From IMG/VR virus record IMGVR_UViG_3300013121_000008, positions 1 to 64,000 of that record: a DNA stretch of 64,000 nt; one strand, given 5' to 3'. The number at the start of each line of letters is the position of its first letter. Position 1 is the first letter of the stretch. Source of the stretch: a virus (taxonomy: Duplodnaviria > Heunggongvirae > Uroviricota > Caudoviricetes). Made by a program: the position numbers and the translations under genes. Shown here one piece after another: positions 29,869-49,117 of the stretch. The notes below the pieces were generated by a model. That model had not been told where the DNA came from. It saw nothing but the letters and a program-made list of their open reading frames with translations, and made no database searches.

Positions 29869-29897
29869 TTTTATTTACTCCTTGTTTTTTCGTTGAG

Positions 29898-31015: not shown

Positions 31016-31259
31016 TGCTACGACTCATCTCGTACTGGACATCGACATCCGATGCCTGATATGCACGAGCATGGAAGCCATGACACTGACGACCATCCTT
31101 CTTGTAGGCGCCATAGTCTACTACTTGATTGCCCGTGGTTTTGGCTTCGAACATAGCCGGTCGAATTAGTTCGGCAGCTCGCTTCGGGTCCGGAGTGGGA
31201 TCCATTGGACAGTCGACAACCGAATTGAAAGCTTGACGGGCGGCATTGGTGATAATCAT
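30981..31259 (-). CDS. hypothetical protein
   Basis: 92 aa ORF. Confidence 0.3.
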   Translation of the reverse strand: MIITNAARQAFNSVVDCPMDPTPDPKRAAELIRPAMFEAKTTGNQVVDYGAYKKDGRQCHGFHARAYQASDVDVQYEMSRSSGGSPCDTSDP

Positions 31260-32973: not shown

Positions 32974-33198
32974 CTACTTGCTAGGGACGACTTCGAATTC
33001 GATTTCGACCCAAGTAACTAGTGTATCGTTGTTAAAATTATACATGTCACCAGTTGTGAGTTCGACTGCGCGCTTTTGATGCAATTGTGCGCTGAGGGGC
33101 GTCATGAGATAGTATTCATTATTCGTGAAGAAAGTATCTCCAGGCTCGACGTACTGAATACACATTTCCTTACCAGAGATATTTTGCTTATATTTCAT
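32974..33198 (-). CDS. hypothetical protein
   Basis: 74 aa ORF. Confidence 0.3.
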   Translation of the reverse strand: MKYKQNISGKEMCIQYVEPGDTFFTNNEYYLMTPLSAQLHQKRAVELTTGDMYNFNNDTLVTWVEIEFEVVPSK

Positions 33199-33749
33199 GG
33201 TTTCTCCTTGTGGTGAAGGGCGTAGGTCGCTTCCCCTTCGTAAGCCCCATAGGTTACCTCAGAAGAGCTAGTTACTCTCTGTAGGGGATCCTACTGCTCT
33301 AGATTACAGTAGTTATTTGATTGTCCCGCAAGCGCGCCAATTGGGACAAAATGTTGTAGAGTAATAGAGGATTTGAAGGACCCAGGAACCTGCGTAATAG
33401 CTTACGCGCAAGCTTCTTACCTCTACAAACTGTCCACTCTACAAAAATGTTGTGCGGTTATTGAATATCCACGGTAGAGCGAAGCTCACCTACCCACCGC
33501 AAGTCCTGTATTTCGAATTACTCACGATATTCGCAGGGCATATGACCTCCCTACGCCGCAGGTTTCGCGCACGCCTGTTGTTCGGATAGATAGGATTTAA
33601 TGGAGCCTTTCGGTTATCCAAATCCAGCGAGGTATCCTTTGAACTCTACTGGTGAAATTCATCAGGTTTCCAACGTTACCTGAATCACCCTTTTCTATTT
33701 TGATTGACCAAAGAGTTTCGGAACTCTTTAGGTAAGGGATTGTGACTTG

Positions 33750-33980
33750 TTAAGTCAGGTTGGGGAAGCACCTGTTACAGCCGTGGTTTCCACACATGGC
33801 CGTCAGGTGCATGTGCTTCTGCATGTTGAAGCCACTACCCTTGGTGGTCTTCTTCTTCCTCTTTCCGTCCCGTCCCTGAGAGGCGTAGAGAGCCTTTCGA
33901 GCCTCTCGTGCCTGGATACGTTCCTTCTTGCGGCGTTCCTTGTTCTTGGCGCGACTTCCACGCCCACCCTTGAGTGCCAT
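33750..33980 (-). CDS. hypothetical basic protein with C-terminal Cys/His cluster (putative nucleic-acid binding)
   Basis: 76 aa; K/R-rich N-terminus and HMHLTAMCGNHGCNRC. Confidence 0.4.
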   Translation of the reverse strand: MALKGGRGSRAKNKERRKKERIQAREARKALYASQGRDGKRKKKTTKGSGFNMQKHMHLTAMCGNHGCNRCFPNLT

Positions 33981-33983
33981 TTT

Positions 33984-34289
33984 TTACTCCGTTTCCTTAG
34001 TGTCGTCCCAGTCGTTGTAGACCGGGAACTCGTCCACGATGTCGAACATGGGCACGGCGGGCCGGTTGCGCGCCAGCGGCTCCGTGTCGTAGAACGCCAT
34101 CTCGGGAACCTTCTCGGTCCGGTCCCCATGCTTCAGATGAACCCGCACGTTCAACATGGAGATGCAGCCTTCGTTGTAGATGTCGAGCACGGTGTAGCGG
34201 TTGCCGCCGCTGGTGATGATCTTGTCGTTCTTGTTCATGACTACTTCATCCGGGTGTGATTGGGAACCGGAACCCAGGCGGTGCTCCAC
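33984..34289 (-). CDS. hypothetical protein
   Basis: 101 aa ORF in the GC-rich island. Confidence 0.35.
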   Translation of the reverse strand: MEHRLGSGSQSHPDEVVMNKNDKIITSGGNRYTVLDIYNEGCISMLNVRVHLKHGDRTEKVPEMAFYDTEPLARNRPAVPMFDIVDEFPVYNDWDDTKETE

Positions 34290-34823
34290 TGGTTGTCTCG
34301 ATCCTTCCCGACTCCAGGAGCCGGGGGATGGGCAGGACCCTTCAGGTAGGTCTTGTTCTTCTGCTGCGAGGCAGGTCCACCCTGCTTCTGTCGGTCGTTG
34401 TACCGCTCCTCGTAGCCTTCGCGGTTCTTTCGGCGGTTGGAACCCAACCAGGTGTGCTTGCTCATGTTGCTACTCCCAGATGAAGCGGGCAATGAAGCAG
34501 AACACCACGGCACTGGTCGTGGACGAAATCCCGAGCATGTACCACAGGAATGCGTTTACGTTGTTGTTTTCCATTTTCTTAGCTCCACAGGTAGTAGATG
34601 ATGGAGATGAACATGATGATCGAGGCGATTCCCGCCAAGATCACGAAAAACAGGAGGATGGCTTCCGTCAGAGTGAAGCCCTTGCGATTGAACATTGTCT
34701 TTTAACCCTCTACTTAAACCCAATAGTGAGGAACGAAATTGTTCTCTGTCTTCGGGTGGGAGCCTAGGTATTCGCACTCCACTTATTTTGTAGTTTGTCC
34801 CCACATTTCTATGGGGTTTGGCA

Positions 34824-35057
34824 TCACATCGCGAGGAATACGATGCCCTTCTTTTCTGCTTCGTTGTACTTTCGAAGCACTTCCTTCTCCGACGGCTCGG
34901 GCTCTCCCCACCCTCGGTTGTTCTTGATGGCTCTGAGGGCCTCTTCCCTCGTTAGCCTACGACCGTGTGGGATAGAACGTTCCTGTTCTTCTACCTCGTC
35001 CCCACAAACGAGAATCTCCTCGTTTACGGGAAGGTAGATTACCTGAAGGTTCGGCAT
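34824..35057 (-). CDS. hypothetical protein
   Basis: 77 aa ORF. Confidence 0.3.
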   Translation of the reverse strand: MPNLQVIYLPVNEEILVCGDEVEEQERSIPHGRRLTREEALRAIKNNRGWGEPEPSEKEVLRKYNEAEKKGIVFLAM

Positions 35058-35074
35058 CTGTCACCTCTAGTTAT

Positions 35075-36142
35075 TTACTGGGTTTCCTGTCGGTACTCCC
35101 AGTTCTCCATCTCCAGTCGCTGCCAGTCAGCCTTCTCGCGAACGAAGAGGGCGCTCCAGGGGGTTTTGAGTGAAGTAGGGGCATCGATGCCCAGTTCCTC
35201 ACCCTGACGCTCCTTGAGGGCCTCCAGACGCTCCAACGAAGCCATGGCGTAGATATACTGCTTGATGCAGTACAGCTTGGAGGACTTGGGGTTCTTGCTT
35301 CCCATCTCCTGCCATTCGTACCAGAAGATGGTACGAAACCAACCAGAAAGCTCCTTCTTCTTCGTCGGAGTCAGAGTCCCGTTGATCTCTTTCAGCAGCG
35401 TCACCATGGGCGCATTGTTGAACTCGATCCAGCGGCCATCTTCGAATCGTCCGTTCTGCCCCACACTGTAGGCCAGAGAGAAGATTGGCTCCATGTTGAT
35501 GGATTCCCCAGCGGCCTCGTTGATGGAACGAATCTTCTTCGCCATCGTCACGAAGTTGTCCAGCTCTCCTCGCACCTTCTTCCAGATCTTTCGACCCTTG
35601 AATGTGGGAGACTTGTTTCCGAAGACGGCCAGGATCCAGGACTTGATGCCCCGAATCGCCATCTCGTACTTGTAGGTGGCCTTGTCGACCTCCTCGTCAG
35701 TGAACGTACCCACGAATTCGAGAACGTCCTCGTCTCCGGTGATGACGGTCTTGATTCGCTCGAAGTCCGCATCGAGGGAGACGAGTTTGTCCTCCATCTC
35801 CCATTCCTGCATCTTGGACGCCCAGAAGCACGCCCGACGAAGGAACATTTCTTCCGGAGAGTCCTTGCTCCAGTGATTCGTCCCGATCTCGCCACCATCG
35901 CCGCTCTTTCGAACGGGGATGATGTTCCCGTCCTTGTCCTTGAGCGCGACCTTGTGGATAATTCCGTTCTTGTCAGGAACGTTCTTGTGGTACGCGCAGA
36001 CCTGAAGGATCGACTGCAGGTCCATGTTGTGCCAGTCGGGCAGGTCGCCTAGAGCGTCAGTTCGCTCGGACGTATCCTCCACTACGGACCCCATCTCCAG
36101 CTTGTCCTCGTGTTCGTTCTCGACTTCGACTTCGATTTCCAT
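35075..36142 (-). CDS. hypothetical protein, paralog family A/B (with 39160..40524)
   Basis: 355 aa; shares LPDW..M.L..I..VC...DG....P..D..GN.IPVRK and downstream blocks with the 454-aa ORF; preceded by SD AGGAGACA. Confidence 0.55.
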   Translation of the reverse strand: MEIEVEVENEHEDKLEMGSVVEDTSERTDALGDLPDWHNMDLQSILQVCAYHKNVPDKNGIIHKVALKDKDGNIIPVRKSGDGGEIGTNHWSKDSPEEMFLRRACFWASKMQEWEMEDKLVSLDADFERIKTVITGDEDVLEFVGTFTDEEVDKATYKYEMAIRGIKSWILAVFGNKSPTFKGRKIWKKVRGELDNFVTMAKKIRSINEAAGESINMEPIFSLAYSVGQNGRFEDGRWIEFNNAPMVTLLKEINGTLTPTKKKELSGWFRTIFWYEWQEMGSKNPKSSKLYCIKQYIYAMASLERLEALKERQGEELGIDAPTSLKTPWSALFVREKADWQRLEMENWEYRQETQ

Positions 36143-36555
36143 CGCTGTCTCCTGTGAAATTGTTATGTGCCACGGCTTTTACTTTGAAAACCCTCCTGCA
36201 CATTCTCCAATGGGACTTGAACCTTTGTCTTTATGGAGTTTTCGCCTGAGTATGCATCCCAGGCCCAAGAACTCTTCTTTACTTGCTTAAGGTAAAGATC
36301 TATCTTGGTTATATTTCTTTTGCAGGTTTTGTTGATTACATTTGTCCTGCACTCAACGAGTATTGATTTTCAACATCCCGTCAAAGTCTATTTCGTAACC
36401 AATTAAACTGAAGACTGAAATAAACTAAATATCTTCAGAGTGTTGTCTTTCGCGTGGTTCTTTGCCTTCAGGCTGGTTGCCCACCAAAGATACTCTACTG
36501 GCTAGTCGTTTGACCTTTGTAGAGGTTATCGTTATTTCCTCCTGTGACTAGTTGA

Positions 36556-36894
36556 CTAGTAGCGGGCGTGAACGTAGAAGTCCACGACCCTCACGATGGT
36601 GCCCTCCGGAAGTGAGAGGATGTCGACATCGGCGTTCGAGATGCTTTCGTGGAGCTTGATGGAGACGAGGGCCTTGGCCAGCTGGGCGTTGTGCTTCCCG
36701 ACGGTGAAATCGGTGATGCAGGATGGCTCCTGACCCGGTTCGGTGACGATGTAGTCCTCGACGTTCTCGGGCACCAAGTTGCCGGAGTAGCAGGTCTTTC
36801 GGAAGACGCGCCGGCTGGGACGAGACGGAACCTTGACGGTGATGATGGTGGTGGTGGTCAGCGTGGGCTTGAGCTTGGACATATTTTTCTCCAC
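36556..36894 (-). CDS. hypothetical protein
   Basis: 112 aa; SD GAGGTGGAG upstream of ATG. Confidence 0.45.
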   Translation of the reverse strand: MEKNMSKLKPTLTTTTIITVKVPSRPSRRVFRKTCYSGNLVPENVEDYIVTEPGQEPSCITDFTVGKHNAQLAKALVSIKLHESISNADVDILSLPEGTIVRVVDFYVHARY

Positions 36895-37682
36895 CTCTAC
36901 TTTAACTTGGTCGATTCATTCAAACCAAGTAGTGGCCTAGGATTTCGCACCACTTTATTTTGTAGATTAACCGTATTGTTTGACGGGCGGCAGCTCTACA
37001 TTCTGTTATTTTTGTTTTTTCTATTATTTTTTATTTTTGGGGCTTAGCTTTCTATCTCCATCGTCCACTTGGATTGCTATACTTAATTATGTATTGAGTA
37101 CGTGGGTTCTTTACCTTACAATTCATTGGGCCCGGGTTCTCAGATGAACTTACTCAGCGCTAAGTAAGTGCTGCTCCACCTTCGCTCACAGCTTCCCCGA
37201 CTTCGCTTGGCACCCAAAACATTAACCTATCAGTTTACTGAAAACTACCACAAACTAACTAACGAATGGCTGATCGCATTATGCTCTCCGATTATCGTTG
37301 AAGTTATTCCCTGAAAAAACTTAGTCTCTTTGAAATCCAATTAAAAAAGAAACTAGTCCATGGCACACCTCCAAGTTACTATTAGTTAGCAGCTACGTTA
37401 ATCTATTAGCCCCTACAGTGCCGATCATTGGGGTTCGGAGGTTATTTAGCCACGGGGCACTCTGTAGCTACATCCCGTAGTAGCAGTAGTCGATTCGCCC
37501 CAGGATGTTCTGGATGACGATGCCATCCTTCATCGTCCCGCCGCAAACCTTTCCACTGATGATTTCGTTGAAGTCATCGTCTACTCCATCTTTTTTTTGT
37601 AAGTCCCGCTAACCCCTTCAGTTCCCCTAACCTTAGAAGCTAAACTTACTTACTGACACAATAAAAACAATCAATAAAATAA

Positions 37683-37810
37683 TAAGAGAAGGTATTTAGG
37701 TATTTAGAAGGTCTTTTAGGTATTTAAAGGTGATTATAGGTATTTGAGGTAGTTTAGGTATTTGAGGGTGATTAGGGTATTTTGGGTATTTAAAGGTATT
37801 TTGGTATTTG
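37683..37810. repeat. tandem iteron-like repeats (GGTATTT core, ~10 copies at 11-12 bp spacing)
   Basis: AGGTATTTAGGTATTTAGAAGGTCTTTTAGGTATTTAAAGGTGATTATAGGTATTTGAGGTAGTTTAGGTATTTGAGGGTGATTAGGGTATTTTGGGTATTTAAAGGTATTTTGGTATTTG, located in a roughly 0.9 kb ORF-free gap. Confidence 0.6.
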
Positions 37811-38068
37811 TTTCGAAGTGGGGCGTATGCCCCTAAACCGAAAAAAGAAAGTAAAAGAAAAAGGGAGGATCTCTCCTCCCTCTTTCAGTGTGCCTACCGC
37901 TCGGCAAGCACGATGTACGTCGTATCCGGATATTCGATGATATCCCACCACCACTTGCGGCGGTTATACGTAGCCATGAACGACTCCAGAGAGCCTTCCC
38001 AGTTCATCTCACCACCCTTGTACATGATCACGATCTTCATGATTGGCTCCTATGCATACGGAATGTAT

Positions 38069-38108
38069 GCATTTAAAAAGGAAATGGCCCCGAAGGGCCA
38101 AATCCTAG
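38069..38108 (-). promoter_or_regulatory. island cassette copy 1: stop-proximal GC hairpin (GGCCCTTCGGGGCC) + TTTCCTTTTTAAATG box
   Basis: Plus strand CATTTAAAAAGGAAATGGCCCCGAAGGGCCAAATCCTAG; on the coding strand it is followed by the second hairpin TGCATAC..GTATGCA, SD and ATG. Confidence 0.55.
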
Positions 38109-38112
38109 AGTT

Positions 38113-38343
38113 CTAGTAGACGTAGGACTGCGAACCCTCCATCAAATACTCCTCCAACTCACCGCAAGCATTGTTGCTCCATCCCTTGCTCCCGAGGAGA
38201 TAGAGGACGCCGTTCACCTTGACCCTAACGATGTGGGGGTCCGCGAACAGCCTCGCGATCCCAGAGGGATGCATCTCCCTCTTCTCGATCCCTTCGTAGA
38301 CCACGCTATCCTGGATGAACGAGTACATGTAAGACACCTTGAA
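38113..38343 (-). CDS. hypothetical protein
   Basis: The ATG at 38343 is preferred (AGGAGG 5 nt upstream) over the ORF-track start at 38364. Confidence 0.4.
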   Translation of the reverse strand, partial: FKVSYMYSFIQDSVVYEGIEKREMHPSGIARLFADPHIVRVKVNGVLYLLGSKGWSNNACGELEEYLMEGSQSYVY

Positions 38344-38373
38344 CATTCTACCTCCTATGAGCATGATTGCTCA

Positions 38374-38410
38374 TTTAAAACGAAATGGGGAGTTTCACGT
38401 CCCCATTCCG
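38374..38410 (-). promoter_or_regulatory. island cassette copy 2
   Basis: CATTTAAAACGAAATGGGGAGTTTCACGTCCCCATTCCG; second hairpin ATGAGCA..TGCTCAT, then AGGAGG. Confidence 0.5.
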
Positions 38411-38418
38411 TCGTCTCG

Positions 38419-39003
38419 CTAGTCGTCCCACTCCGAGTCACACTCGAAGCACGGAGTTCCCAATTCCGTGCCGTGAACGCACGTCTCGATCTTCTTGGTC
38501 TTCCGACGCACGTTCTTCACGATCCGGGGCTGGAATAGGGCTTCCTGCTCGGACTTCTGCTCCTCGACGGCAGGCGGTTCCTCTCGCACCACCGGCTTCG
38601 GCACCACCGGCTTCTCGACCGGCTTCGTGGGTTCCGTCCCCATCTTCGGGAACGGAAGGAGGAAGATCCAGAAGGGCGCCCCGTGGAAGGACAGGGGGAT
38701 GCCCCGCCGATTGGTCTTCATCTTCTCGACGGCTCCCGCGAACCACCGGTTCCCGCCCTGCCAGTAGTCCTGGCGATCAAAGGACACTTTCACCACGCGA
38801 GTGTTGCTGTCCCAGGCCACAATGGCCCGGTTGTGCCACTCAACCCCGCACCACTTGAACAAGATCTTGATCTTCTCCAGCTCCTCCACCGTGGGCTGAC
38901 GGAGGGTCACTCGGGACAGGATGTGCCCCACCTTCTCCTGCGAGGTCAACTCACGGTTGAAGCTGATCTGAGCGAGGTCCTGGTTGTACACGAATTCACG
39001 CAT
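38419..39003 (-). CDS. hypothetical protein with Pro-rich linker and C-terminal zinc ribbon
   Basis: C-terminal CVHGTELGTPCFEC; PKPVVREEPPAVEE linker; the ATG at 39003 is preceded by GGGAG. Confidence 0.45.
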   Translation of the reverse strand: MREFVYNQDLAQISFNRELTSQEKVGHILSRVTLRQPTVEELEKIKILFKWCGVEWHNRAIVAWDSNTRVVKVSFDRQDYWQGGNRWFAGAVEKMKTNRRGIPLSFHGAPFWIFLLPFPKMGTEPTKPVEKPVVPKPVVREEPPAVEEQKSEQEALFQPRIVKNVRRKTKKIETCVHGTELGTPCFECDSEWDD

Positions 39004-39088
39004 GACTGACTCCCGTATGATTGTGTCATACACACAGACCTTGTTGATCCAGTAAGTTCTACACTATGTAGATCCTGGTACGGTTGGT

Positions 39089-39121
39089 CCAGTTAAAAGA
39101 AAAGGTGGGTTGTTATCCCAC
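39089..39121 (-). promoter_or_regulatory. island cassette copy 3
   Basis: CCAGTTAAAAGAAAAGGTGGGTTGTTATCCCAC; second hairpin TCTACAtagTGTAGA. Confidence 0.5.
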
Positions 39122-39159
39122 AATTTCTTCACCCCTTATAGCTCAGGGGGTCACGAGTT

Positions 39160-40524
39160 CTACTTAGCCAGGAAGCGCTCACGCTCCTCGCTGGTCATGT
39201 GGACGTTCTTCACGTCCACCGTCCAGTGGTCAGGGCGCCGGATCTCCTCCAGCCACTTGTGGTTGAAGAGGTCGAACTTGAAGCCCGACTTCTCGTTCCG
39301 GCCCTCGCTGAGCCACGACCAGTCCATCTCCTCCTTGCGGAAGTAGTCGGACCAGTTGGTCTTCATGAGGTTCACCGTCTCACGGTCGACGTGCTTGTCT
39401 TCGGCCAGAGCCTCCAACAGCGCGATCTGGATGAGCGAACCCATCCAGCGGAGCAGGGTGCCCTTGACGGCATCCGACATCCCCGTCCGGACCTCAGCCC
39501 AGAACCAACGCTTGAAGAAGCCGTTGAACTTCTTCTTCGTGTCGTTCTGGACGTAGCCGCCCGTGGGGAGGTGCTTCTCCACGCTCGACCAGATGTGGGG
39601 CCCGTTGGCCTTCTCCCACTTCTGATCGATGTAGAGGCCACCCCACTGGAGGATGGAGATCACGGCACACTTCTCGTCGAAGTCCACCGCGAACTCCTTG
39701 GCCTCCTGCACGGCGCAGTAGAACGTGGTCTTCACGTCCTTCCACACCTTCTTGGCCGTCTCCTTGCCGAAGACGCGGACCAGCCAGCGACGGAACTCCA
39801 GCGAGTCCCGCTCCAGCTTCTCCTGTTCCCGGAGGGTCATCGCCTCCAGGATGTCCTCGGCCGAGGTGAACGGGGACTTCTCCCACACGGACTGCGAGGC
39901 GCAGGCCACCTCGATGTCGTGCAGGAACTTGTCCACGTCGTAGCCCCATTCCATGAGCAGGAACTCGGCCCGCGCTGCCCGGTTCAGGGCCACGTCGCTC
40001 GGGGACTCCTCACCCCAGGTGTTCTTGCCCATCGAGGGCTCGTACACCGGATCCTTGCGGACGGGGATGAGGTTGCCCTCGTTGTCCCGCATCGGGGTCC
40101 GGATGACGATGCCATCCTTCGCCTCCGACTTGACGTAACAGACGCCTAGGATGATCTCCTCCAACGTCATGCTACCCCAATCGGGAAGCGCCTTGAAGAC
40201 GTCATCGCCGTCCTGGTCCTCGTCGGCCTCCACCGCCACGATCCCGGTCGGGGAGTCCTTGTAGTCCATCTCGGGCTGGACCACCTCCTCCTGCGCGAAG
40301 GACTTGTTGCGGCCCCACAGCGCGAAGAGGTCGAGGACGACTCCCTTCGCCACCATCCGACCCGTCTTCAGGTCGCGGTAGCGGTCCCCGGAGATCGCGA
40401 TGTCCATCTCGGCCAGGAAGAGCGCCAGAGGCCCGAAGGCCTTGGTGGCGGCCTGGGAGACGACGGAGGGGACGGTGTTGATGATCTTGGACATTGCTGA
40501 CTCCACAATGCGTACTGCCGGCAC
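39160..40524 (-). CDS. hypothetical protein, paralog family A/B (with 35075..36142)
   Basis: 454 aa; collinear similarity to the 355-aa ORF across several blocks. Confidence 0.55.
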   Translation of the reverse strand: MPAVRIVESAMSKIINTVPSVVSQAATKAFGPLALFLAEMDIAISGDRYRDLKTGRMVAKGVVLDLFALWGRNKSFAQEEVVQPEMDYKDSPTGIVAVEADEDQDGDDVFKALPDWGSMTLEEIILGVCYVKSEAKDGIVIRTPMRDNEGNLIPVRKDPVYEPSMGKNTWGEESPSDVALNRAARAEFLLMEWGYDVDKFLHDIEVACASQSVWEKSPFTSAEDILEAMTLREQEKLERDSLEFRRWLVRVFGKETAKKVWKDVKTTFYCAVQEAKEFAVDFDEKCAVISILQWGGLYIDQKWEKANGPHIWSSVEKHLPTGGYVQNDTKKKFNGFFKRWFWAEVRTGMSDAVKGTLLRWMGSLIQIALLEALAEDKHVDRETVNLMKTNWSDYFRKEEMDWSWLSEGRNEKSGFKFDLFNHKWLEEIRRPDHWTVDVKNVHMTSEERERFLAK

Positions 40525-40735
40525 GCGCGGTTGGCCGTTTGGCCGAAATCATTTTGATGACACTATGTCACCTGACGACAGTTGGTCTTCTGCCGAGTGT
40601 TACTCACTACAGGATCTTACCCAAGGATCAATGGGCCTTGAGGACTTACGAGCTACTGCCTCTATCCCGGTTTGTCGGTTAAGAAAAACAAAAGGGGCAA
40701 ACTAGTGCCCCAGTTGTTTCGATGTCTTGCTTTCG

Positions 40736-40954
40736 CTAAGACATCTTCCACGCGAGGCGGTCCGAACCGCTGCGGCGGCGCTCGTTGTAGTCTCCCGAGG
40801 AGTCCAGGGTGTTCACGATGGAGGCCAACTCAGAGCTCGCCACGCGCCTGTCTTTCCTCGACGCCAACTTCTTCTCCTCCTTCCACGAGTGACGCTGGCC
40901 CTTACAGGGCTTCGAACGAGAAACGGAGCCGTGGGCGATGTTAGAACGGGACAT
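40736..40954 (-). CDS. hypothetical basic protein
   Basis: The ATG at 40954 is preceded by AAGGAGA; the longer ORF-track start would overlap the upstream regulatory cassette. Confidence 0.4.
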   Translation of the reverse strand: MSRSNIAHGSVSRSKPCKGQRHSWKEEKKLASRKDRRVASSELASIVNTLDSSGDYNERRRSGSDRLAWKMS

Positions 40955-40987
40955 CTCTATCTCCTTGTGAACTGGAGCGGGATTGCT

Positions 40988-41025
40988 CCATTTAAAAGGA
41001 AAAACCAGTGTACAAAGCCCACTGG
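40988..41025 (-). promoter_or_regulatory. island cassette copy 4
   Basis: CCATTTAAAAGGAAAAACCAGTGTACAAAGCCCACTGG; second hairpin TGGAGC..GCTCCA, then AAGGAGA. Confidence 0.5.
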
Positions 41026-41041
41026 CAGGCATAGGACAGAC

Positions 41042-41158
41042 TACATCTTGTCACCATAGAAGTAGTCGGTGATCAGAATACCCACCACGATCAGGGCAAC
41101 GTAGCCGCAGAGCCAGATCATCCCGGCATCCGGGGACCAATCGATGTTGGGGAACATT
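41042..41158 (-). CDS. hypothetical small membrane protein (38 aa)
   Basis: MFPNIDWSPDAGMIWLCGYVALIVVGILITDYFYGDKM; SD GGAGA upstream; flanked by cassette motifs on both sides. Confidence 0.35.
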
Positions 41159-41198
41159 CAATCTCCATGAATAGCTGTACTTGATTGTACAATGCTAT

Positions 41199-41237
41199 CC
41201 AGTTAAAAAGAAAATGAGCAGTTTATAGTCTTGCTCA
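41199..41237 (-). promoter_or_regulatory. island cassette copy 5
   Basis: CCAGTTAAAAAGAAAATGAGCAGTTTATAGTCTTGCTCA; second hairpin ATAGC..GCTAT, then GGAGA. Confidence 0.5.
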
Positions 41238-41254
41238 GGACTTGGGAAACTACT

Positions 41255-41411
41255 TGTTCTCTTCGTAGAAGGCCTGCGCGGCCTCCTCGGTGAAGAACGA
41301 GTAGCAGCTAATCCCCGGGTTCAAGCCCTCCGGGAAGTCGCGCTTCAACTGCTCGTGGTTGCCGAACCAGAAGGCGACGCTAGAAGAGGTCAAAACGAAG
41401 AACTTGAGCAT
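41255..41411 (-). CDS. hypothetical small protein (52 aa)
   Basis: MLKFFVLTSSSVAFWFGNHEQLKRDFPEGLNPGISCYSFFTEEAAQAFYEENK; flanked by cassette motifs. Confidence 0.35.
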
Positions 41412-41442
41412 GTTTACTCCAAGCAGGTTGGTTAGGCTCCTG

Positions 41443-41513
41443 CGTTTAAAAGAAAGGGCCTGTCTATGAAGCCGACAGGCAGGCTATAGGCCCCGAAGGG
41501 CCAAATGCTAAGC
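41443..41513 (-). promoter_or_regulatory. island cassette copy 6 (double terminator hairpin)
   Basis: GCGTTTAAAAGAAAGGGCCTGTC..GACAGGC...GGCCCCGAAGGGCC; second hairpin GCAGG..CCTGC, then TGGAG. Confidence 0.5.
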
Positions 41514-41515
41514 GA

Positions 41516-41767
41516 CTAGAACAACCGCAGCTCCATGTAGCCATCGGGCACCCACACGGACACCCGAATCTTGTGCTCCCGGGCCATGGCGATGATCTCC
41601 ATCGCCTTCTCGGGTTCGATGTCCAGGATCATCAACTGGTCGTTACCGTCGATGACGGTACAAGTCCCGAAGGTCTTGGAGAAACTAATCTCCAAGTGGG
41701 ACCCGATCTGGGCCGCCAACGACTGGATGATAATGCCGAAGTTCTTCATGTTGAGGTGGCAGTGCAT
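41516..41767 (-). CDS. hypothetical protein (paralog of 41859..42098)
   Basis: 83 aa; NFGIIIQSLAAQ...AMEIIAMAREHKIRVSVWVPDGYMELRLF parallels NINMIAALELGV...GRKLIEKAKSLGVKVITFTFDGRDFTLA. Confidence 0.5.
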   Translation of the reverse strand: MHCHLNMKNFGIIIQSLAAQIGSHLEISFSKTFGTCTVIDGNDQLMILDIEPEKAMEIIAMAREHKIRVSVWVPDGYMELRLF

Positions 41768-41811
41768 TTCTGGCTCCAGTATCGGACATAGTGAATCTAT
41801 GTCTAGCGATA

Positions 41812-41850
41812 CCAGTTAAAAGGAAAAGGCCCCCGAAGAGGCCTAATCCT
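41812..41850 (-). promoter_or_regulatory. island cassette copy 7
   Basis: CCAGTTAAAAGGAAAAGGCCCCCGAAGAGGCCTAATCCT immediately after the stop of 41859..42098; second hairpin GACATAG..CTATGTC, then TGGAG. Confidence 0.6.
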
Positions 41851-41858
41851 TAGTGTCC

Positions 41859-42098
41859 CTACGCCAAGGTGAAGTCGCGGCCGTCGAAGGTGAACGTGAT
41901 AACCTTGACCCCCAAGCTCTTCGCCTTCTCGATGAGCTTCCTCCCCTCCTCGAAGGGGACTTCTTCGCAGATGGCCCAAACCACACCATTCTTCGCGAGG
42001 CAAAGGCTGTTGCGAAGGGGCCCAATGCACACCTCGTCCACAACTCCCAACTCCAGGGCCGCGATCATGTTGATGTTACCGGTCATCTTGTACTCCAA
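41859..42098 (-). CDS. hypothetical protein (paralog of 41516..41767)
   Basis: 79 aa; SD TGGAG upstream. Confidence 0.5.
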   Translation of the reverse strand: MEYKMTGNINMIAALELGVVDEVCIGPLRNSLCLAKNGVVWAICEEVPFEEGRKLIEKAKSLGVKVITFTFDGRDFTLA

Positions 42099-42125
42099 GT
42101 GAAGACAATCGTTAGTTCATGTCTT

Positions 42126-42165
42126 CAGTTAAAAGGAAAAGGCCCCCGAAGAGGCCTAATCCTAG
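42126..42165 (-). promoter_or_regulatory. island cassette copy 8 (38-nt identical to copy 7)
   Basis: CAGTTAAAAGGAAAAGGCCCCCGAAGAGGCCTAATCCTAG; second hairpin GAAGACA..TGTCTTC, then TGGAG. Confidence 0.6.
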
Positions 42166-42184
42166 TTTCTGCTTCGTTTAACGC

Positions 42185-42532
42185 CTAGCAGTAGGCGAGG
42201 TCGTCCCACCTGTAGGGCAGAACCCTACTGTGGGACTGGAGGAACCTCCACTCGCGGTGGAGGCTGTCGATCTCTTCCACGAGCGGGAAGAGTTCCGTCG
42301 TGTCGCAGCCCTGCTTGTAGCAGAACTGCAACACCCTCACGGCCGCACCGATCTCTCGGGCAACCTCCGACCCCTGCAGCGTTGCCGCTACAGAGATCAG
42401 CTCCCGTGCCTCCGCCCGACACAAGGCCGGACGGTCTTCGATCCACGTTGCGACTTCCGCCGCAACCACGACGACCCCACCCAGCATCGCGAGGATGCAG
42501 GTGAGGACGCAGAGCAGAGACGCGAACGCCAT
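42185..42532 (-). CDS. hypothetical membrane protein
   Basis: The ATG at 42532 (MAFASLLCVLTCILAMLGGVVVVAA, TM helix) is preferred. The ORF-track extension runs through the GTTGCTGGTTGTT tandem repeat. Confidence 0.4.
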   Translation of the reverse strand: MAFASLLCVLTCILAMLGGVVVVAAEVATWIEDRPALCRAEARELISVAATLQGSEVAREIGAAVRVLQFCYKQGCDTTELFPLVEEIDSLHREWRFLQSHSRVLPYRWDDLAYC

Positions 42533-43187
42533 CTTCTCTCCTTTTTTGTTGCTGGTTGTTGTTGCTGGTTGTTGGTTGGGGTTGAACGGCTTTAGAGTAC
42601 CGTTCGCCTCTGTAGAGGACTCAGGGGTTGAAGGATTCATGCCTATTCCCTTCATGGCACTCGGTTTTCCATAGACCGAGAACTGTTACTTCTCTACTTG
42701 CATAGAGCGGTGAGCGTGCTTCGGGGACTTTCACCCCAGGATGCTCACGTAGCCTGCTTAATAGCGCCCTTCCGCGAAGAGCATCTATCGACCTGTTACC
42801 CAGGTTCCAGCCGTTACTAGTGAAGGGGGAGACTATCATCTACCGTATGGCATCCAGTAGATGTAGCAATCACGTTCGCGGTCTGGCGGCATACTGGTAC
42901 ACCTGTCCCTTCAGGACTATTCACAATCTCCAGTGCTAGAAGACTGCTGTTTGCAGGTGGGTACGTGTGGCACACATACCTTCCTCTGATGTGGCAAGCA
43001 TCAGGCTACCTGTATCGTCACCTGGGGGTATCCCCAAGCCTCCGTTACCATTTCTGGTGTAGGGTGAACCCCTACCAGTAGCATATCCCGTATACTAGTA
43101 GCACCGTAGTACCACTAGTCTTACTGTATGTTGTGTGCATACAGAGGACTGGGCTTGTACCCGCAAGGACTACTGTTCAGTAGTCTG

Positions 43188-43229
43188 CCATGTAAAAAGA
43201 AAAGGTAGAGTATACACATACACTCTACC
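43188..43229 (-). promoter_or_regulatory. island cassette copy 9
   Basis: CCATGTAAAAAGAAAAGGTAGAGTATACACATACACTCTACC. Confidence 0.45.
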
Positions 43230-43367
43230 TGATCCGCTCTACGCAAAGAGCAAGATCCCCATCATAATAAGCCCAACAAGGGCCATCACAATGGACTTCC
43301 CATCGTACTGAGACATACTAACTCCTTCTTGAGTTGATAGTGAGCATAGCACCATGCTATACTACTT

Positions 43368-43400
43368 CAGTTAAAAGAAAAGACAGAGATGTACTCTGTG
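43368..43400 (-). promoter_or_regulatory. island cassette copy 10 (left of the island/structural-arm junction)
   Basis: CAGTTAAAAGAAAAGACAGAGATGTACTCTGTG; second hairpin ATAGCA..TGCTAT, then AAGGAG and a 26-aa TM ORF (43249..43326). Confidence 0.45.
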
Positions 43401-43542
43401 TAGACCCCCGGGGGCTCGGAAAGATAGGGACTCCTACCATTCCATATTAATACTAGGTCTATCCATAAATTTTTCATTTTTTAGAAATCTCTATTAAGAA
43501 TTTTTTATTATTTTTAATTATTATTACTTTTAATTATCGACA

Positions 43543-46118: not shown

Positions 46119-46913
46119 ATGGATAGACCAACGTTTTCTGATATCTCAATAAAAGAAGTTTTAGGATTTACTTTTTCTCCTAAAGGTGCTGGCGCATGGG
46201 AAGGTTGGGGAGGCCAATGGATTAGTGGAAATCAAATCCCTTCATTTCAACAACCCTCAAACTCTTTAGAATCATTATTAAATATAAGAAAAATAGGAAA
46301 CGCTGGCCCCGGTAATACTTTGATGTCATCTTTCAGAGTTTTTAGTGGTGTTCAAAGTGTTTTAACTGGCTTTTCCGATGGCGGTTTTGGAGGTGCTTTA
46401 GCTTGGGGCGCATCAGAAGTAATTACATCTGGTATAGTGGGCTCTGCTGCTGCGTCTGGTGTCAGTACAGGTGGTCAAATTGGTATTGGCATTGGAGGGG
46501 GAATAGGAACCATACTGTCTGGTGGATCTCCTATTGGTAATATTGTTGGACAAGCCACTGCCTCCTTTCTTATGCAAAGCAGTGCAGGAGGCGCTCTAGC
46601 TGGTGCCGCAATAGGCATAGGCGGTCCTTTGATGCTTGGTGCAGCAACAGCACTGGGAGCCACCTATTTGGCCGGTAGAGGCTCTTATGAGGTCATGAAG
46701 GCGGGATACGCAAGAAGACAAAGACTAACTCATAGTATTGATACTGCAGGTTCTATGGCCGCTTTTATGAACAAAAATGCCTTCACCATGAGAGGAAAAG
46801 CTATAGCAGCAATAAGAAATAATCACTTGAATGCTAGATCTGCTTTTGGTCAAGAAGCGAAAAGAGTTCATTTCTCCTCTTCTCGTAAATTTATTAATAA
46901 TGGACTATACTAA
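46119..46913 (+). CDS. glycine-zipper membrane protein
   Basis: 264 aa; long GxxxG-rich hydrophobic stretch (GIGIGGGIGTILSGG...AGGALAGAAIGIGGPLMLGAATALG). Confidence 0.45.
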   Translation: MDRPTFSDISIKEVLGFTFSPKGAGAWEGWGGQWISGNQIPSFQQPSNSLESLLNIRKIGNAGPGNTLMSSFRVFSGVQSVLTGFSDGGFGGALAWGASEVITSGIVGSAAASGVSTGGQIGIGIGGGIGTILSGGSPIGNIVGQATASFLMQSSAGGALAGAAIGIGGPLMLGAATALGATYLAGRGSYEVMKAGYARRQRLTHSIDTAGSMAAFMNKNAFTMRGKAIAAIRNNHLNARSAFGQEAKRVHFSSSRKFINNGLY

Positions 46914-49117
46914 TGGAATTGAATTTAGAACAAGAACTAGATAAAATATATGAAACAAATAAATATAATTATAAATTTTTAAGATTTGATAGACAGCCTT
47001 CGGAAGAGTTAGTTAACTATTATGTTGATAACTTCAACATTAATACAGATTGTCATTATAGTTGTGTGACTTGTCAAATAGACTATATAAATAAATATAG
47101 AGATCAATTAGAGATTTTAAATGAAAAAACTAAATCTTTAACGGGCCAAAAATTAAAAAAATGGTTTCTAATTAAATGTAATTTCATTCCCAAGGGTTTA
47201 AGCGGTATCAATAAAGACAAATTTGATGCTTTAATAGAAAGCGGCGTAGAAAAAAGAAGAGCATTAAGAATTCTTTTATCTACTATAGATTCTGCTGCTT
47301 GGGCTGAATTAATGATTGGTTTTGATGATGAAACTAAAAAAGAAGAAATCGGTGAACAATTTTACTTAAGATGGTATCAAAAACATATTATTAGGTGTAC
47401 TGCTGACAGAAAAGTGTTAAGACAAGGACGTAGATCTGGAAAGACTGCTGCTGTTTGTGTATCTCTAATAGATAAAGTTTTTAATCATAAAGTATATAAA
47501 GGCATTGATATCAATACTAAAGAAAAGATTTATGGTGGACCTAAAATAGCTATTATTACCCCTTTCCAGTCTCAAGTTTCTGTTATATTCGAACAATTAG
47601 AAGACTATATTAGACGTAATAAAGATTTAGAAAAACAAATCGTTCAAAGAGGTTCAAAACTATATAAACAAACTCCTCCTATGTTGATGGAGTTTAAAAA
47701 CGGAGCTTCTATAACTGGCTTTGTAACGGGAGCGAATAATAAAGAAGACGGAACGGCTGGTGGTGCTATTCGTGGTATTACTGGTGATATTATTTATTTA
47801 GACGAAATGGACATGATTCCAGAGAATATCTATAAAAAAGTTATAGAACCATTAAAACTGTCTAAGCCTCAAACCTATTTTATTGGCTCTTCTACCCCTA
47901 TTGGTAAAAAAGCTACCTTCTATAAATGGTGTAAAGAAGATTTAAAATATAAGGAATTTTATGTTCCTTCTACCGCACTTCCTCATTGGGAACTTGAAGA
48001 AGATCAATACTTATCTGAATCAACTGGTGAGTCTTTTAGAGCAGAATATATGGCTGACTTTATAGTGGACTCTTATGGTGTGTTTAAAAATCCACTTATA
48101 GTAGCAGCTAGAATGAACTATACTTATGATCAAACTAATAATCCACAATTTTGGCTAAATGAGTTTGGAGAAGATTATTATAAGTTCATAAAATGTATTG
48201 GAGTCGACTGGAATAAAACTGTAGGAACAGAATTCTCGGTAGTGGCTTACTCTCCATCGACTGGAAGATATTGGACGTTAGAGAATTATTTAATGCCACC
48301 AACCGAATATTCTAGTGAAGGATATAAAGAAAAACTAAAAGATTTAAATTTCAAATGGGATCCTAAGTATATTTATGCAGATGAAGGATACGGACATACT
48401 ATTTTAGAGAATTTACAATTAGATTCTATGTATATCTCTAAAATGAGAGAAAAAACAGCATTTGACATATCAGTTGCTAAAATTAAAGATAAATTAAAAA
48501 TAATTAATTTTTCTTCTAAATTAGAGTTGTTTAATCGCGCTGTGAACCATAAATTTGAAAAACATGCTAAATCTTTTTTGATTGAAAATGCAGTACAAAT
48601 ATTCGAAAGAGAAGCAATAGGGTTTTCTGAATCTGATTTTAGCTTAATCAAACAATTAGGTAACTATATAGAGAAAGAAAAAAAGGATAATGGAAGAGTA
48701 ATCTATGCTATGGAAAATGATAGTATAGGAGATCATAGACTAGATGCTCTTTGTTTGGGTTTGGCGGGGTTAGTTATAGAGGAATCTTTATTCTCTGTTA
48801 ATTATAGAGATTTATCCACTCCAAGATATATCCCGAATAATGAAACTCAAAATTCTAATGCCGATGAATTAATCCTAAAGGATATTTTTGATTATAGAAA
48901 CTATATAAAAGATAAAGCTAAAAATTCATTGAGACGCTCTCAAATTGATAGATCTTTACAAGAAAAACAAGATGAAGGTTATTTTTCAGAAAAAGGATTG
49001 GCTACTTTTGTAAAAACTGATAGAAAACAAGATTATGATGGTAGTTATGGTGTAAAATATACTCCAAAAACAATAGGCAAGAGAAGAGGCGCCTCTATAA
49101 AGCGAAAAGGATTCTAA
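46913..49117 (+). CDS. terL: terminase large subunit
   Basis: Walker A LRQGRRSGKTAAV, Walker B-like IIYLDEMD, the 734 aa size, and a C-terminal acidic nuclease-like region. Confidence 0.75.
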   Translation: MELNLEQELDKIYETNKYNYKFLRFDRQPSEELVNYYVDNFNINTDCHYSCVTCQIDYINKYRDQLEILNEKTKSLTGQKLKKWFLIKCNFIPKGLSGINKDKFDALIESGVEKRRALRILLSTIDSAAWAELMIGFDDETKKEEIGEQFYLRWYQKHIIRCTADRKVLRQGRRSGKTAAVCVSLIDKVFNHKVYKGIDINTKEKIYGGPKIAIITPFQSQVSVIFEQLEDYIRRNKDLEKQIVQRGSKLYKQTPPMLMEFKNGASITGFVTGANNKEDGTAGGAIRGITGDIIYLDEMDMIPENIYKKVIEPLKLSKPQTYFIGSSTPIGKKATFYKWCKEDLKYKEFYVPSTALPHWELEEDQYLSESTGESFRAEYMADFIVDSYGVFKNPLIVAARMNYTYDQTNNPQFWLNEFGEDYYKFIKCIGVDWNKTVGTEFSVVAYSPSTGRYWTLENYLMPPTEYSSEGYKEKLKDLNFKWDPKYIYADEGYGHTILENLQLDSMYISKMREKTAFDISVAKIKDKLKIINFSSKLELFNRAVNHKFEKHAKSFLIENAVQIFEREAIGFSESDFSLIKQLGNYIEKEKKDNGRVIYAMENDSIGDHRLDALCLGLAGLVIEESLFSVNYRDLSTPRYIPNNETQNSNADELILKDIFDYRNYIKDKAKNSLRRSQIDRSLQEKQDEGYFSEKGLATFVKTDRKQDYDGSYGVKYTPKTIGKRRGASIKRKGF

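Follow-up and report, generated by a model that had tools for sequence, protein, structure and literature searches.

Small-gene modules separated by a composite junction of predicted terminator and core in the GC-rich block of an uncultivated tailed phage

Organization of the array

We analyzed a 64,000-nucleotide (nt) stretch of DNA (positions 1 to 64,000 of IMG/VR record IMGVR_UViG_3300013121_000008; hereafter the window) from the ~158-kb genome of an uncultivated tailed phage, and in particular the gaps between the small genes carried by its minus strand at 37894-43316. An earlier note on this DNA had proposed that all of these gaps share one cassette, composed of a GC-rich hairpin, a conserved T-rich box, a second hairpin and a Shine-Dalgarno sequence. 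The array comprises 11 genes, ten of them small and one encoding 444 amino acids (aa), and 12 junctions at 37852-43399 (minus strand), including one upstream of the first gene and one after the last. It occupies the right-hand 5.6 kb of a GC-rich block, is divergent from the terminase-portal-capsid module and forms the hyperplastic head of the phage's leftward gene block.

For comparison, we made use of L001, a 3.9-kb Logan contig that is collinear with the window but for three differences, of contigs to which terminase homologues at 48-55% identity led (L002, L004/L005 and L008), and of contigs to which members of the family of the largest array protein, gG, led (L130/L131 and L132). The genes of the array are the following:

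43239-43316, minus strand: g1, 25-aa hydrophobic peptide, TAG stop
42185-42532, minus strand: gA, 115 aa with an N-terminal hydrophobic segment, TAG stop
41859-42086, minus strand: gB, 75-aa ORFan, absent from L001
41516-41767, minus strand: gC, 83-aa ORFan, absent from L001
41250-41411, minus strand: gD, 53-aa ORFan, absent from L001
41041-41157, minus strand: gE, 38-aa membrane peptide, kept in L001
40736-40954, minus strand: gF, 72-aa basic protein
39160-40494, minus strand: gG, 444 aa, anchor gene of the array
38419-39003, minus strand: gH, 194 aa, second anchor gene, 34% identical to L130 11544-12110
38113-38346, minus strand: gI, 77 aa
37894-38040, minus strand: gJ, 48 aa, last gene of the array

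Anatomy and enrichment of the junctions

The junctions between these genes are:

43367-43399, minus strand: junction 0, hairpin ACAGAG..CTCTGT and box CTTTTCTTTTAACTGA, upstream of g1
43188-43230, minus strand: junction 1, 12-bp hairpin (-15.4 kcal/mol) and box variant TTTTCTTTTTACATGG
42125-42157, minus strand: junction 2, hairpin AGGCCTC-TTCG-GGGGCCT and box TTTTCCTTTTAACTGA
41812-41844, minus strand: junction 3, hairpin and box of junction 2 with the perfect consensus TTTTCCTTTTAACTGG, z-score (z) of folding -5.1, box followed by a second hairpin of 16 bp
41443-41502, minus strand: junction 4, two hairpins (GGCCC-TTCG-GGGCC and GCCTGTC..GACAGGC) and box CCTTTCTTTTAAACG
41199-41237, minus strand: junction 5, hairpin TGAGCA..TGCTCA and box TTTTCTTTTTAACTGG
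40988-41026, minus strand: junction 6, hairpin GCCAGTG..CACTGGT and box TTTTCCTTTTAAATGG
40676-40711, minus strand: junction 7, hairpin GGGGCA..TGCCCC and variant box TTTTGTTTTTCTTAACCG
39089-39121, minus strand: junction 8, hairpin GTGGG..CCCAC and box CTTTTCTTTTAACTGG
38372-38404, minus strand: junction 9, hairpin GGGGA..TCCCC and box ATTTCGTTTTAAATG, z = -5.1
38069-38100, minus strand: junction 10, hairpin TGGCCC-TTCG-GGGCCA and box TTTCCTTTTTAAATGC, z = -5.5
37852-37886, minus strand: terminal junction, 13-bp hairpin and TTTTTCTTTTACTTTC, the left half of the box only

In all 12 gaps, a GC-rich hairpin (hairpin 1) is located directly 5' of a T-tract on the coding strand. A scan for terminator-like sites detected 11 of them, all confined to the coding strand, as compared with 0.53 ± 0.67 (maximum 3) in 200 dinucleotide shuffles; the twelfth, at 38387-38404, was read directly and had escaped the scan because its stem runs on into the T-tract. 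The succession of a variable GC hairpin and a T-rich box described in the earlier note is therefore well founded. The sequence TTTTAA(C/A)(T/C)G, hereafter the core, is present in 11/12 junctions, and the motif of the right half of the box was found within 22 nt of 10 of the 11 scored sites (0.005 in shuffles). Similarly, the pattern TTTTCYTTTTAAMYG, with up to two mismatches, has 20 matches in the window where 5.1 ± 2.2 are expected. Nine of these fall into the 5.4-kb array, where each is intergenic and in sense orientation, and the remainder are two-mismatch matches in AT-rich DNA.

The claim of an identical architecture in every gap holds for hairpin 1 and the T-tract, and for the core with one exception, and not for the second hairpin. 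The second inverted repeats quoted in the earlier note do exist, mostly as stems of 4-9 bp, with the one of 16 bp indicated above; they are replaced after junction 1 by a region devoid of open reading frames (ORFs), and before gG and gH by leaders of 181 nt and 85 nt, respectively. A second hairpin is also absent from minimal cassettes of the relatives (ORF X3 of L001, L130 and L008). A (T/A)GGAG Shine-Dalgarno sequence precedes each ATG by 5-8 nt, as had been noticed, although the start codon lies 10-51 nt past the end of the box, and not 40-60 nt. Measured from hairpin 1, this distance is 25-66 nt, and eight of the 13 short cassettes do not exceed 49 nt. As proposed, every gene has its own copy of the unit, in an array that resembles an early or hyperplastic ORFan region, with the correction that a junction also lies upstream of the first gene and that the last one carries only half a box.

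Near-identical copies of hairpin 1, and likewise of hairpin 2, form families that are scattered among unrelated genes. The identity of two copies over 38 nt that had been reported was recovered at 41813-41850 and 42126-42163 (100%), that is, in junctions 2 and 3, which follow unrelated genes.

The box as a composite of two elements

The earlier note had treated the box as a single conserved motif and had overlooked that it is made of two elements. Its left half, TTTTC(C/T)TTTT, corresponds to the U-tract expected of a canonical intrinsic terminator. The preceding hairpin 1 has a stem of 5-13 bp (-5.5 to -20.6 kcal/mol), often closed by a UUCG loop, at least six T residues are found in the 9 nt after the stem, and in about half of the copies an upstream A-rich run pairs with the U-tract; at junction 9 this pairing extends the stem and matches even a CG interruption (ACGGAAU...AUUUCGU). 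Covariation in the UUCG hairpin family reached 0.497 versus 0.185 ± 0.063 (0/500 shuffles as high), a score that GC-only stems aligned on their loop can overstate.

Of the 12 strong terminator-like sites in the whole 64-kb window, nine belong to the array. Two of the three outside it have a similar CTTCTTTTTA tail without the core (TTAAYTGG), and because these sites share the tail and not the core, we regard the left half as a generic terminator tail and the right half as array-specific. Hairpin 1 and the left half of the box are hence predicted, by every sequence feature, to constitute an intrinsic terminator, in agreement with the first half of the unit envisaged in the earlier note. Like other intrinsic terminators, they combine a GC stem with a U-tract, stand just after stop codons and occur on the coding strand only. 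They differ from ordinary terminators in that the tail continues into TTTTAA(C/A)(T/C)GG, which is absent from the three other sites of the window, and in that every gene has one of its own, an arrangement that an ordinary operon could not accommodate.

The right half of the box carries the core in its full form, (C)CTTTTAA(C/A)(T/C)GG. In the window, it adjoins the second hairpin at 0-7 nt; in L130, its distance from hairpin 1 varies from 6 to 29 nt, but its position immediately 5' of hairpin 2 or of the Shine-Dalgarno sequence is constant. In the minimal cassettes, ...AACTGGAGG is itself the Shine-Dalgarno sequence (L001 X3 and L130, with the equivalents CATGGAGG and TACGGAGG in L008): the TGG of the core opens it (L001 X3 TTTTAACTGGAGGTATCTGATG, L130 CTTTAACTGGAGGTTAAAGATG and several cassettes of L008), and it starts 2 nt past ...AAC. 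At junction 6, the TGGAG of the box is sequestered in the second hairpin (GGAGC..GCTCC). The core thus appears to belong to the downstream module and probably marks the start of the downstream message. Since it also precedes ORF-free regions in the window, L002, L130 and L132, including as the specific variant TTTTTAC(A/G)TGG (the junction 1 box, for instance, recurs as TTTTCTTTTTACGTGG before the ORF-free region of L002), it is not merely a translation signal. As to the second hairpin, the RNase III-type processing site suggested in the earlier note is unlikely, given that the stems are mostly short and the hairpin dispensable.

Module gain and loss at the box

A second property of the box that the earlier note had overlooked is its position at the crossover points of gene gain, loss and duplication. 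L001 lacks gB, gC and gD and has four additional ORFs, X1 and X2 between gE and gF, and X3 and X4 between gG and gH. At these three indels, the homologous blocks of the window and L001 overlap only in the box, by 15, 26 and 18 nt, so that all six breakpoints lie inside it. At each of them, the upstream gene retains hairpin 1 and the downstream gene its second hairpin and Shine-Dalgarno sequence; in L001, for instance, the right half of junction 5 plus gE directly follows gA. As the box makes up ~3% of the array and ~18% of a short gap, six breakpoints would very unlikely have fallen there by chance. The crossover position varies, being located in the U-tract at indel junctions 1 and 2 and anywhere within 18 nt at indel junction 3, as homologous exchange predicts.

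A duplication is found in L130, where two modules with an identical 77-aa ORF stand in tandem (12489-12722 and 12821-13054) and are joined in the T-rich box.

Conservation of the junction grammar in related phages

The relatives share a common map in which the structural module is followed by an AT-rich divergent gap, a head motif, a conserved hairpin, a first T-tract with box, an ORF-free region of 0.65-1.4 kb and small-gene modules. The grammar of hairpin, T-tract, core and Shine-Dalgarno sequence occurs at the same genomic position in L002, L008, L130 and L132, that is, in phages whose terminases are 48-55% identical, or whose gG is 34% identical, to those of the window; L004 has the hairpin and T-tract only, without the core. 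In L008, the short core has 19 matches where 5.5 ± 2.3 are expected, nine of which lie in a 3.9-kb early block.

The proteins are far less conserved. Those of the window array have no significant match in L002, L004 or L008, and the only ones detected in L130 are gG (34%), gH (34%) and the X1 protein of L001 (49%), to which we add a positional homologue of g1 read by eye (L130 5197-5277, MRYSDNNGKSFVMALVAVVLLTVLFI). The 3' flank of gA, GTTAAACGAAG, is kept in L001 (one mismatch) and in L130, and the L130 array likewise ends in a half-box (TTTTATTTTACTTTAC, similar to TTTTCTTTTACTTTC in the window). Hairpin 1 after gG, which pairs GTGGG with CCCAC in the window, pairs GAGGG with CCCTC in L130, a U-A pair having been replaced by A-U in a compensatory manner. 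In the GAGCAATC family of second hairpins, a G-C pair of the gF copy corresponds to U-A in the copies of gI and X1.

Between the window and L001, junction-leader spacers are 98-99% identical, and identity drops to 63-90% exactly at the start codons. The non-coding grammar thus appears to be the most constrained part of the array and the ORFs its fluid part. No match was obtained when the phage collection was searched at the nucleotide level with the island or the structural block, when viral contigs were scanned with gG, the box and the portal protein, or when JGI metagenomes were scanned with the gG alignment.

Head element, ORF-free region and conserved leaders

Upstream of and within the array, we distinguished the following further elements:

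43450-43460, minus strand: head motif AGACCTAGTAT, followed by a -10-like TATTAAT, candidate head promoter/operator
43403-43421, minus strand: conserved hairpin TTCCGAGCCCCCGGGGGTC, between the head motif and the first terminator
42533-43187, minus strand: ORF-free, hairpin-dense region of ~655-658 nt, from junction 1 to gA
40495-40675, minus strand: gG leader, conserved 5' leader
39004-39088, minus strand: gH leader, conserved structured 5' leader

The head motif has counterparts in the relatives (AGACCTGGTAT in L002 and L008, AGACCTGGTTAT in L004, GGACCTGGATAT in L130 and GACCAGGATAT in L132), with the consensus (A/G)GACC(T/A)GG(A)TAT, also written AGACCTRGTAT. The hairpin ~30 nt past it (consensus TT(C/T)CGAGCCC(C/A)C(C/G)GGGGTC) is nearly invariant in six related heads and displays no covariation; the heads compared include L002 2095-2150, L008 3860-3916, L130 5060-5110 and L132 ~1480-1550. 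A metagenome scan with this hairpin returned at least 120 matches, nearly all of them chance matches in GC-rich DNA. Of these, only the AT-rich contigs L055, L061, L071 and L093 look related by a similar hairpin context; otherwise they seem unrelated, and they lack cassettes.

A second exact copy of the head motif, in the form AGACCTGGTAT, is present at 27353-27363 (plus strand), at the other edge of the GC-rich block and facing inward, and is preceded by two degenerate copies at ~20-nt spacing. We considered whether this copy forms an inverted terminal repeat of the island with the head and rejected the idea, as only the 11-nt core of the motif is shared.

The ORF-free region folds with -236 kcal/mol (42533-43190; z = -4.6, 0/20 shuffles as stable). 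Positional equivalents of ~0.9-1.4 kb, likewise ORF-free, exist in L002, L004, L008, L130 and L132, and those of L002, L004 and L008, the three compared, have no detectable sequence similarity. The region may represent either a rapidly evolving structured RNA or an accumulation of decayed junction hairpins. Rfam, at gathering and E-value thresholds, had no match for this 658-nt region, the leaders or the junctions. The minus strand of the GC-rich block contains more long ORF-free stretches (31300-32840, 33220-33750, 36160-36555 and 36885-37470), none of which has an Rfam match; two carry a T-loop-like motif, GGTTCAAGTCCC (~32225 and ~36220).

Junction 7 and the gG leader (40495-40735) are identical to L001 at 238/240 positions, compared with 19-26/30 in the gG coding DNA just past the ATG; the leader itself (L001 1095-1280) is 99% identical. 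A 60-nt block of the gG leader, GGGATAGAGGCAGTAGCTCGTAAGTCCTCAAGGCCCATTGATCCTTGGGTAAG, is kept in L130 (~9780-9850), whose gG is 34% identical, and has compensatory changes there at three pairs. By energy alone the leader is not unusually stable (z = -0.3). We consider it a candidate for a new cis-regulatory RNA. For gH, four 30-nt windows at 38986-39105, which include the first 18 nt of the gene, are identical to L001 at 118/120 positions versus ~85% in the coding DNA, and the leader is partly kept in L130 (11450-11543), including a hairpin that differs by the loss of one whole base pair.

Absence of sigma-70-type promoters from the junctions

The earlier note had read the unit as a terminator combined with a promoter or processing site. 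A consensus scan detected no sigma-70-type -35/-10 promoter at any junction, and the distance between hairpin 1 and the ATG leaves no room for one in addition to a Shine-Dalgarno leader. Were transcription to start at the invariant pyrimidine-G (YG) step of the core, positions -12 to -7 would read TTYYTT. Sigma-70-family factors require A(-11), the logic of their -10 elements being A(-11)/T(-7). Since TTYYTT lacks A(-11) and there is no sigma-70 site, any promoter reading needs a polymerase or factor that is not of the sigma-70 type. Genes for an RNA polymerase, a sigma-like factor or a recombinase/integrase were not found among the ~45 ORFs of the window that were scanned, and no lysogeny genes were seen in the window.

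Genomic setting and codon usage

The structural genes of the phage lie on the plus strand and encode the terminase (46913-49117), portal protein (51573-53345), major head protein (56465-57775) and tail sheath (61359-63257). The terminase is at most 27% identical to that of any deposited phage and is identical to one encoded on a 158-kb JGI contig. Several related terminases (P0009, P0036, P0068, P0100 and P0113) are 855-1187 aa long and contain the intein/LAGLIDADG Pfam domains PF14890 and PF14528. The window also encodes NAD-salvage enzymes, a CCA-adding enzyme, an RlaP-family protein and 15 tRNA genes.

GC content is 42-59% across 28000-43450 and 25-37% over most of the window, with AT-rich phage DNA on either side of the block; a GC-richer leftward (minus-strand) block is found at the same place in L002, L004 and L008. 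The GC content at third codon positions (GC3) reaches 0.88 in the array and 0.69 elsewhere in the block, as opposed to 0.22-0.23 in AT-rich and structural genes (37894-43316 compared with 43543-63920 and 521-26990). Stop codons follow the same division, with TAG in 11/11 array genes and TAA in 19/19 structural genes. The phage tRNAs read AAA, AGA, ATA, ACA, CAA, GAA and GGA, and TTA is read via an intron-containing tRNA-Leu of the phage. Codons served by these tRNAs are frequent in the AT-rich genes, and the array makes little or no use of AAA, AGA, ATA, ACA, CAA and TTA.

These features suggest that the host is GC-rich and that the GC-rich block is translated by host tRNAs, and hence early, the remainder of the genome relying on the phage's own tRNAs; the leftward block would presumably be codon-matched to the host and expressed early. 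Early and late genes are known in general to differ in their codon usage (PMC5683454), beside which the GC3 split observed here is extreme.

Two tRNA genes deserve separate mention. The tRNA-Leu(UAA)-like gene (~29920-30240, minus strand), which ARAGORN did not call, has its anticodon loop interrupted by a group I intron (Rfam Intron_gpI, 46.7 bits, E = 2.6e-9, just under the gathering score), and its exon-intron boundary resembles that of the cyanobacterial tRNA-Leu intron. An amber-suppressor tRNA (anticodon CTA) is encoded at 4216-4296 (minus strand), the array genes all stopping at TAG; no in-frame TAG was seen in the structural ORFs. The possibility that the box provides an in-frame back-up stop against suppressor read-through of TAG was considered and rejected, as the next in-frame stops are scattered.

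Array proteins and flanking repeats

No Pfam match was obtained for the array proteins (8/11 tested) and no PHROG match for the six tested, gG having neither. Among 5.8 billion proteins, gG has a single close homologue, encoded on L001, and a search of 1.84 billion representatives yielded a family of 10 members. The AlphaFold model of this protein (pLDDT 37) was unusable. For the small ORFs, a concatenated query of 13 ORFans against the same 5.8 billion proteins found no homologue, a design that is probably poorly suited to the word filter. A 355-aa paralogue of gG, 27% identical, is encoded further down the block (35075-36142, minus strand), and a 23-nt fragment at 37509-37531, within the short ORF 37446-37526, is 96% identical to gG coding DNA.

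Immediately downstream of the last terminator of the array, 13 copies of a 9-bp unit (AAGGTATTT on the plus strand, AAATACCTT on the minus strand) occupy 37689-37809; their iteron-like arrangement suggests an origin or a protein-binding array. Box-like sequences without a preceding hairpin (TTTAATTGG) were noted at 37337-37352 and 36399-36414.

Discussion

A proposed message boundary that doubles as a shuffling joint

We propose, with a probability of roughly 0.6, that the array is a series of self-contained ORFan modules built on one composite junction, in which a terminator and a downstream core together form a message boundary and a shuffling joint. The anatomy of the junctions, their enrichment over chance, the breakpoints, the pattern of conservation and the recurrence of the grammar in relatives were directly observed. 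Hairpin 1 and its U-tract would end and 3'-protect the upstream message. Each ORF, bracketed by 5' and 3' hairpins, would thereby yield an insulated, stabilized and nuclease-resistant monocistronic message with a strong (T)GGAG site. As the same 15-26 nt occur in every gap, the box would also serve as crossover point for the deletion, insertion, swapping and duplication of modules. The breakpoints directly support a role of the box as short homology for module excision, insertion, exchange and duplication, and the underlying mechanism was probably short-homology recombination and not a dedicated recombinase. That the core is instead the site of dedicated non-sigma-70 machinery, be it an early promoter for a phage-supplied polymerase or factor or a site-specific core for ORF capture, seems unlikely to us.

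How the 5' ends arise allows for three answers. Our tentative preference is that transcription enters at the head element (43450-43460) and passes the conserved hairpin (43403-43421), that the polymerase reads through the terminators, owing either to their leakiness or to antitermination, and that the RNA is cut in the single-stranded box. It is also possible that the box is a short AT-rich promoter not of the sigma-70 type, with its start at the invariant YG; that the box creates no 5' end at all is doubtful. Read-through and processing are slightly favored because a conserved head element and hairpin precede the first terminator, in the position of nut or put sites, because the box is unlike the head motif, and because no polymerase or sigma-like gene was seen. 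If each of 12 terminators in series stopped 50% of the polymerases, fewer than 0.1% would reach the end, a calculation that would exclude passive read-through and would leave a choice between initiation at every box and a polymerase rendered terminator-resistant after entry at the head, with cutting of its RNA in the box.

Several points weigh against this overall picture. Termination, read-through, 5' ends, early timing and the recombination mechanism are all deduced from sequence. The breakpoints come from one close pair, the window and L001, and amount to three events, and the tandem duplication in L130 could be a recent unequal crossover or a repeat-assembly artefact. A terminator per gene is more typical of arrays with one promoter per gene, such as the PeSLs of T4 discussed below, than of a single operon. 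Reading through 12 terminators needs antitermination, the sole hint of which is a hairpin without covariation, and the head motif itself appears only loosely -10-like, no -35 element having been found. The conservation of a 10-nt core across deep divergence exceeds what a generic RNase E-type cleavage would need. Finally, the inspection for polymerase, sigma factor, antiterminator and recombinase genes covered 64 of ~158 kb.

Alternative explanations

The strongest competitor, although rather unlikely on balance, is a box that acts as a promoter starting at YG for a phage polymerase, or for the host polymerase with a sigma-like phage factor, which would turn the array into a true analogue of the PeSL arrays. 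The single terminator per gene is readily accommodated by this view, as is the maintenance of a T/A-rich motif in five arrays across deep divergence, in which the pyrimidine-G step always follows TTTA(A/C)N; moreover, a hairpin begins right at the predicted 5' end, and the core precedes ORF-free RNA regions. There is also precedent in the early promoters of jumbo phages, with a conserved AT-rich sequence of ~10 nt near -10 (PMC7598289). The motif, though, does not follow the A(-11)/T(-7) pattern by which -10 elements are recognized in the sigma-70 family, and no polymerase or sigma-like gene was found among the scanned ORFs. The box further differs from the head motif, which looks like the real entry point, and transcripts of minimal cassettes would have their 5' ends within or at the Shine-Dalgarno sequence.

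An explanation we regard as improbable denies the box any part in setting a 5' end and takes it for a terminator U-tract fused to an A/U-rich translational enhancer and standby site, kept uniform through concerted evolution as junctions recombine with each other. U/A-rich tracts 5' of the Shine-Dalgarno sequence are known enhancers, as in the T7 gene 10 leader. That the core runs straight into the Shine-Dalgarno sequence in minimal cassettes, and that 38 nt are identical in two junctions, which demonstrates homogenization, are what such a scheme would lead one to expect. It is at odds with the presence of the core, including its TTTTTAC(A/G)TGG variant, before ORF-free regions in several relatives, and since the core is kept where the anchor proteins are 34% identical, homogenization within a genome cannot explain it.

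The confinement of six out of six indel breakpoints to the box, the single box per module flank and the special head and terminal half-sites could also be accommodated if the box were the core site of a dedicated site-specific recombination system, that is, an integron-like platform for ORF capture, and the TTTTAAC of the box resembles the RYYYAAC inverse core of attC. We nevertheless hold this to be very improbable: no integrase or recombinase match was found among the scanned ORFs, the partner GTTRRRY and an imperfect attC-type palindrome are missing, the stems being perfect, GC-rich and of unrelated sequence, and the crossover positions vary within the box.

Selfish elements of the repetitive extragenic palindromic (REP) or miniature inverted-repeat transposable element (MITE) type, or an assembly chimera, which near-identical hairpin families among unrelated genes and a block composition more than 25 GC points off the rest of the contig might suggest, can practically be dismissed, as exactly one unit occurs per gap, in one orientation and in register with stops and Shine-Dalgarno sequences, as a GC-richer minus-strand block lies at the same place in L002, L004 and L008 and a junction-built small-gene array at the same place in five independent assemblies, and as AT-rich phage DNA flanks the block on both sides. 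On these respective grounds the attC, MITE and chimera readings were all rejected.

Comparison with known systems

The closest counterpart is the PeSL of T4-type phages, which consists of a terminator stem-loop, a sigma-70 early promoter, a Shine-Dalgarno sequence and an ATG, and is found in hyperplastic ORFan regions, where it mediates modular shuffling and mini-circle formation (Arbiol et al. 2010, PMC2839356; Comeau et al. 2014, PMC4122927). As in those regions, units occur in every gap of an ORFan region and lead from a stem-loop to start signals, Shine-Dalgarno sequence and ATG; the non-coding units seem better conserved than the ORFs, the modules would be transcriptionally insulated, and the indel or replacement junctions between close phages lie inside the units. 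Four of the six characteristic features of PeSLs are thus present (stem-loop, Shine-Dalgarno sequence with ATG, ORFan region and breakpoints in the units). The junctions differ from them by having neither a sigma-70-like -35/N17/-10 promoter nor room for one; the conserved element is instead a T-rich core of 10-16 nt at the Shine-Dalgarno sequence or 5' hairpin. The setting differs as well, in that the phage is not T4-like and an array of GC3 0.88 is embedded in a genome of GC3 0.22. With the defining promoter lacking, the array would work like a PeSL array without being a member sensu stricto.

Other systems share single aspects. A single conserved entry element at the head is reminiscent of the T7 early operon, lambda nut and HK022 put, and the conserved hairpin just past it, before the first terminator, of nut and put; by eye, without formal comparison, we recognized no similarity to boxA/boxB or put, and no homology to N, Q or put was shown. 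As in T7, hairpins separate all cistrons and would end up at the ends of mRNAs. T7 nevertheless has one terminator at the end of its operon and RNase III hairpins of at least ~20 bp, as opposed to the short stems, each with a U-tract, found here, which do not have the features of T7-type RNase III inter-cistronic sites.

In the early promoters of phiKZ and AR9, a highly conserved AT-rich motif of ~10 nt is likewise reiterated upstream of early units, and there too sequence analysis suffices to detect it (PMC7598289). Their motif is unrelated in sequence to the one described here, which is fused to a terminator and stands before every gene, and no phage polymerase genes were seen among the scanned ORFs of the 64 kb. 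Integron cassettes resemble the modules in being promoter-less small ORFs, each with a hairpin repeat at which modules are gained and lost; unlike attC sites, the junctions lack the R''/L''-L'/R' architecture and the paired core RYYYAAC...GTTRRRY (TTTTAAC being present without its GTTRRRY partner) and have no fixed crossover, and no IntI was seen among the scanned ORFs. The comparison with moron arrays drawn in the earlier note does not fit 11 modules that head a divergent non-structural block and have no sigma-70 promoter, a moron being a single unit of promoter, ORF and terminator inserted into the late operon of a prophage.

Implications

While the PeSL principle was known, its sigma-70-independent form, the clean breakpoints, the anchor-module architecture and the codon-partitioned setting are new. 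The idea of regulatory cassettes that double as joints for ORFan shuffling is thereby extended beyond T4-type phages to a new and uncultivated lineage, whose members have genomes of some 150-200 kb and turn up in numerous metagenomes, and becomes independent of the sigma-70 promoter, a terminator plus a short T-rich core being enough. The contrast between conserved anchors (g1, the ORF-free region, gA, gG and gH) and the turnover of the modules between them offers a clean natural experiment, which is usable to study how phages acquire genes for host takeover and anti-defence, and the junction grammar could guide the annotation of tiny ORFs and early regions when related phages are recovered from metagenomes. 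The GC3 contrast of 0.88 versus 0.22, together with the matching set of tRNAs, suggests an unusually sharp temporal partition of translation resources.

Were the core, against our expectation, the recognition site of dedicated non-sigma-70 machinery, the array would be a plug-and-play platform of a lytic phage, on which any core-flanked ORF would automatically be expressed, insulated and mobile, within a genome that partitions its translation in time between early modules with TAG stops, served by host tRNAs, and a remainder with TAA stops that is served by the tRNAs of the phage.

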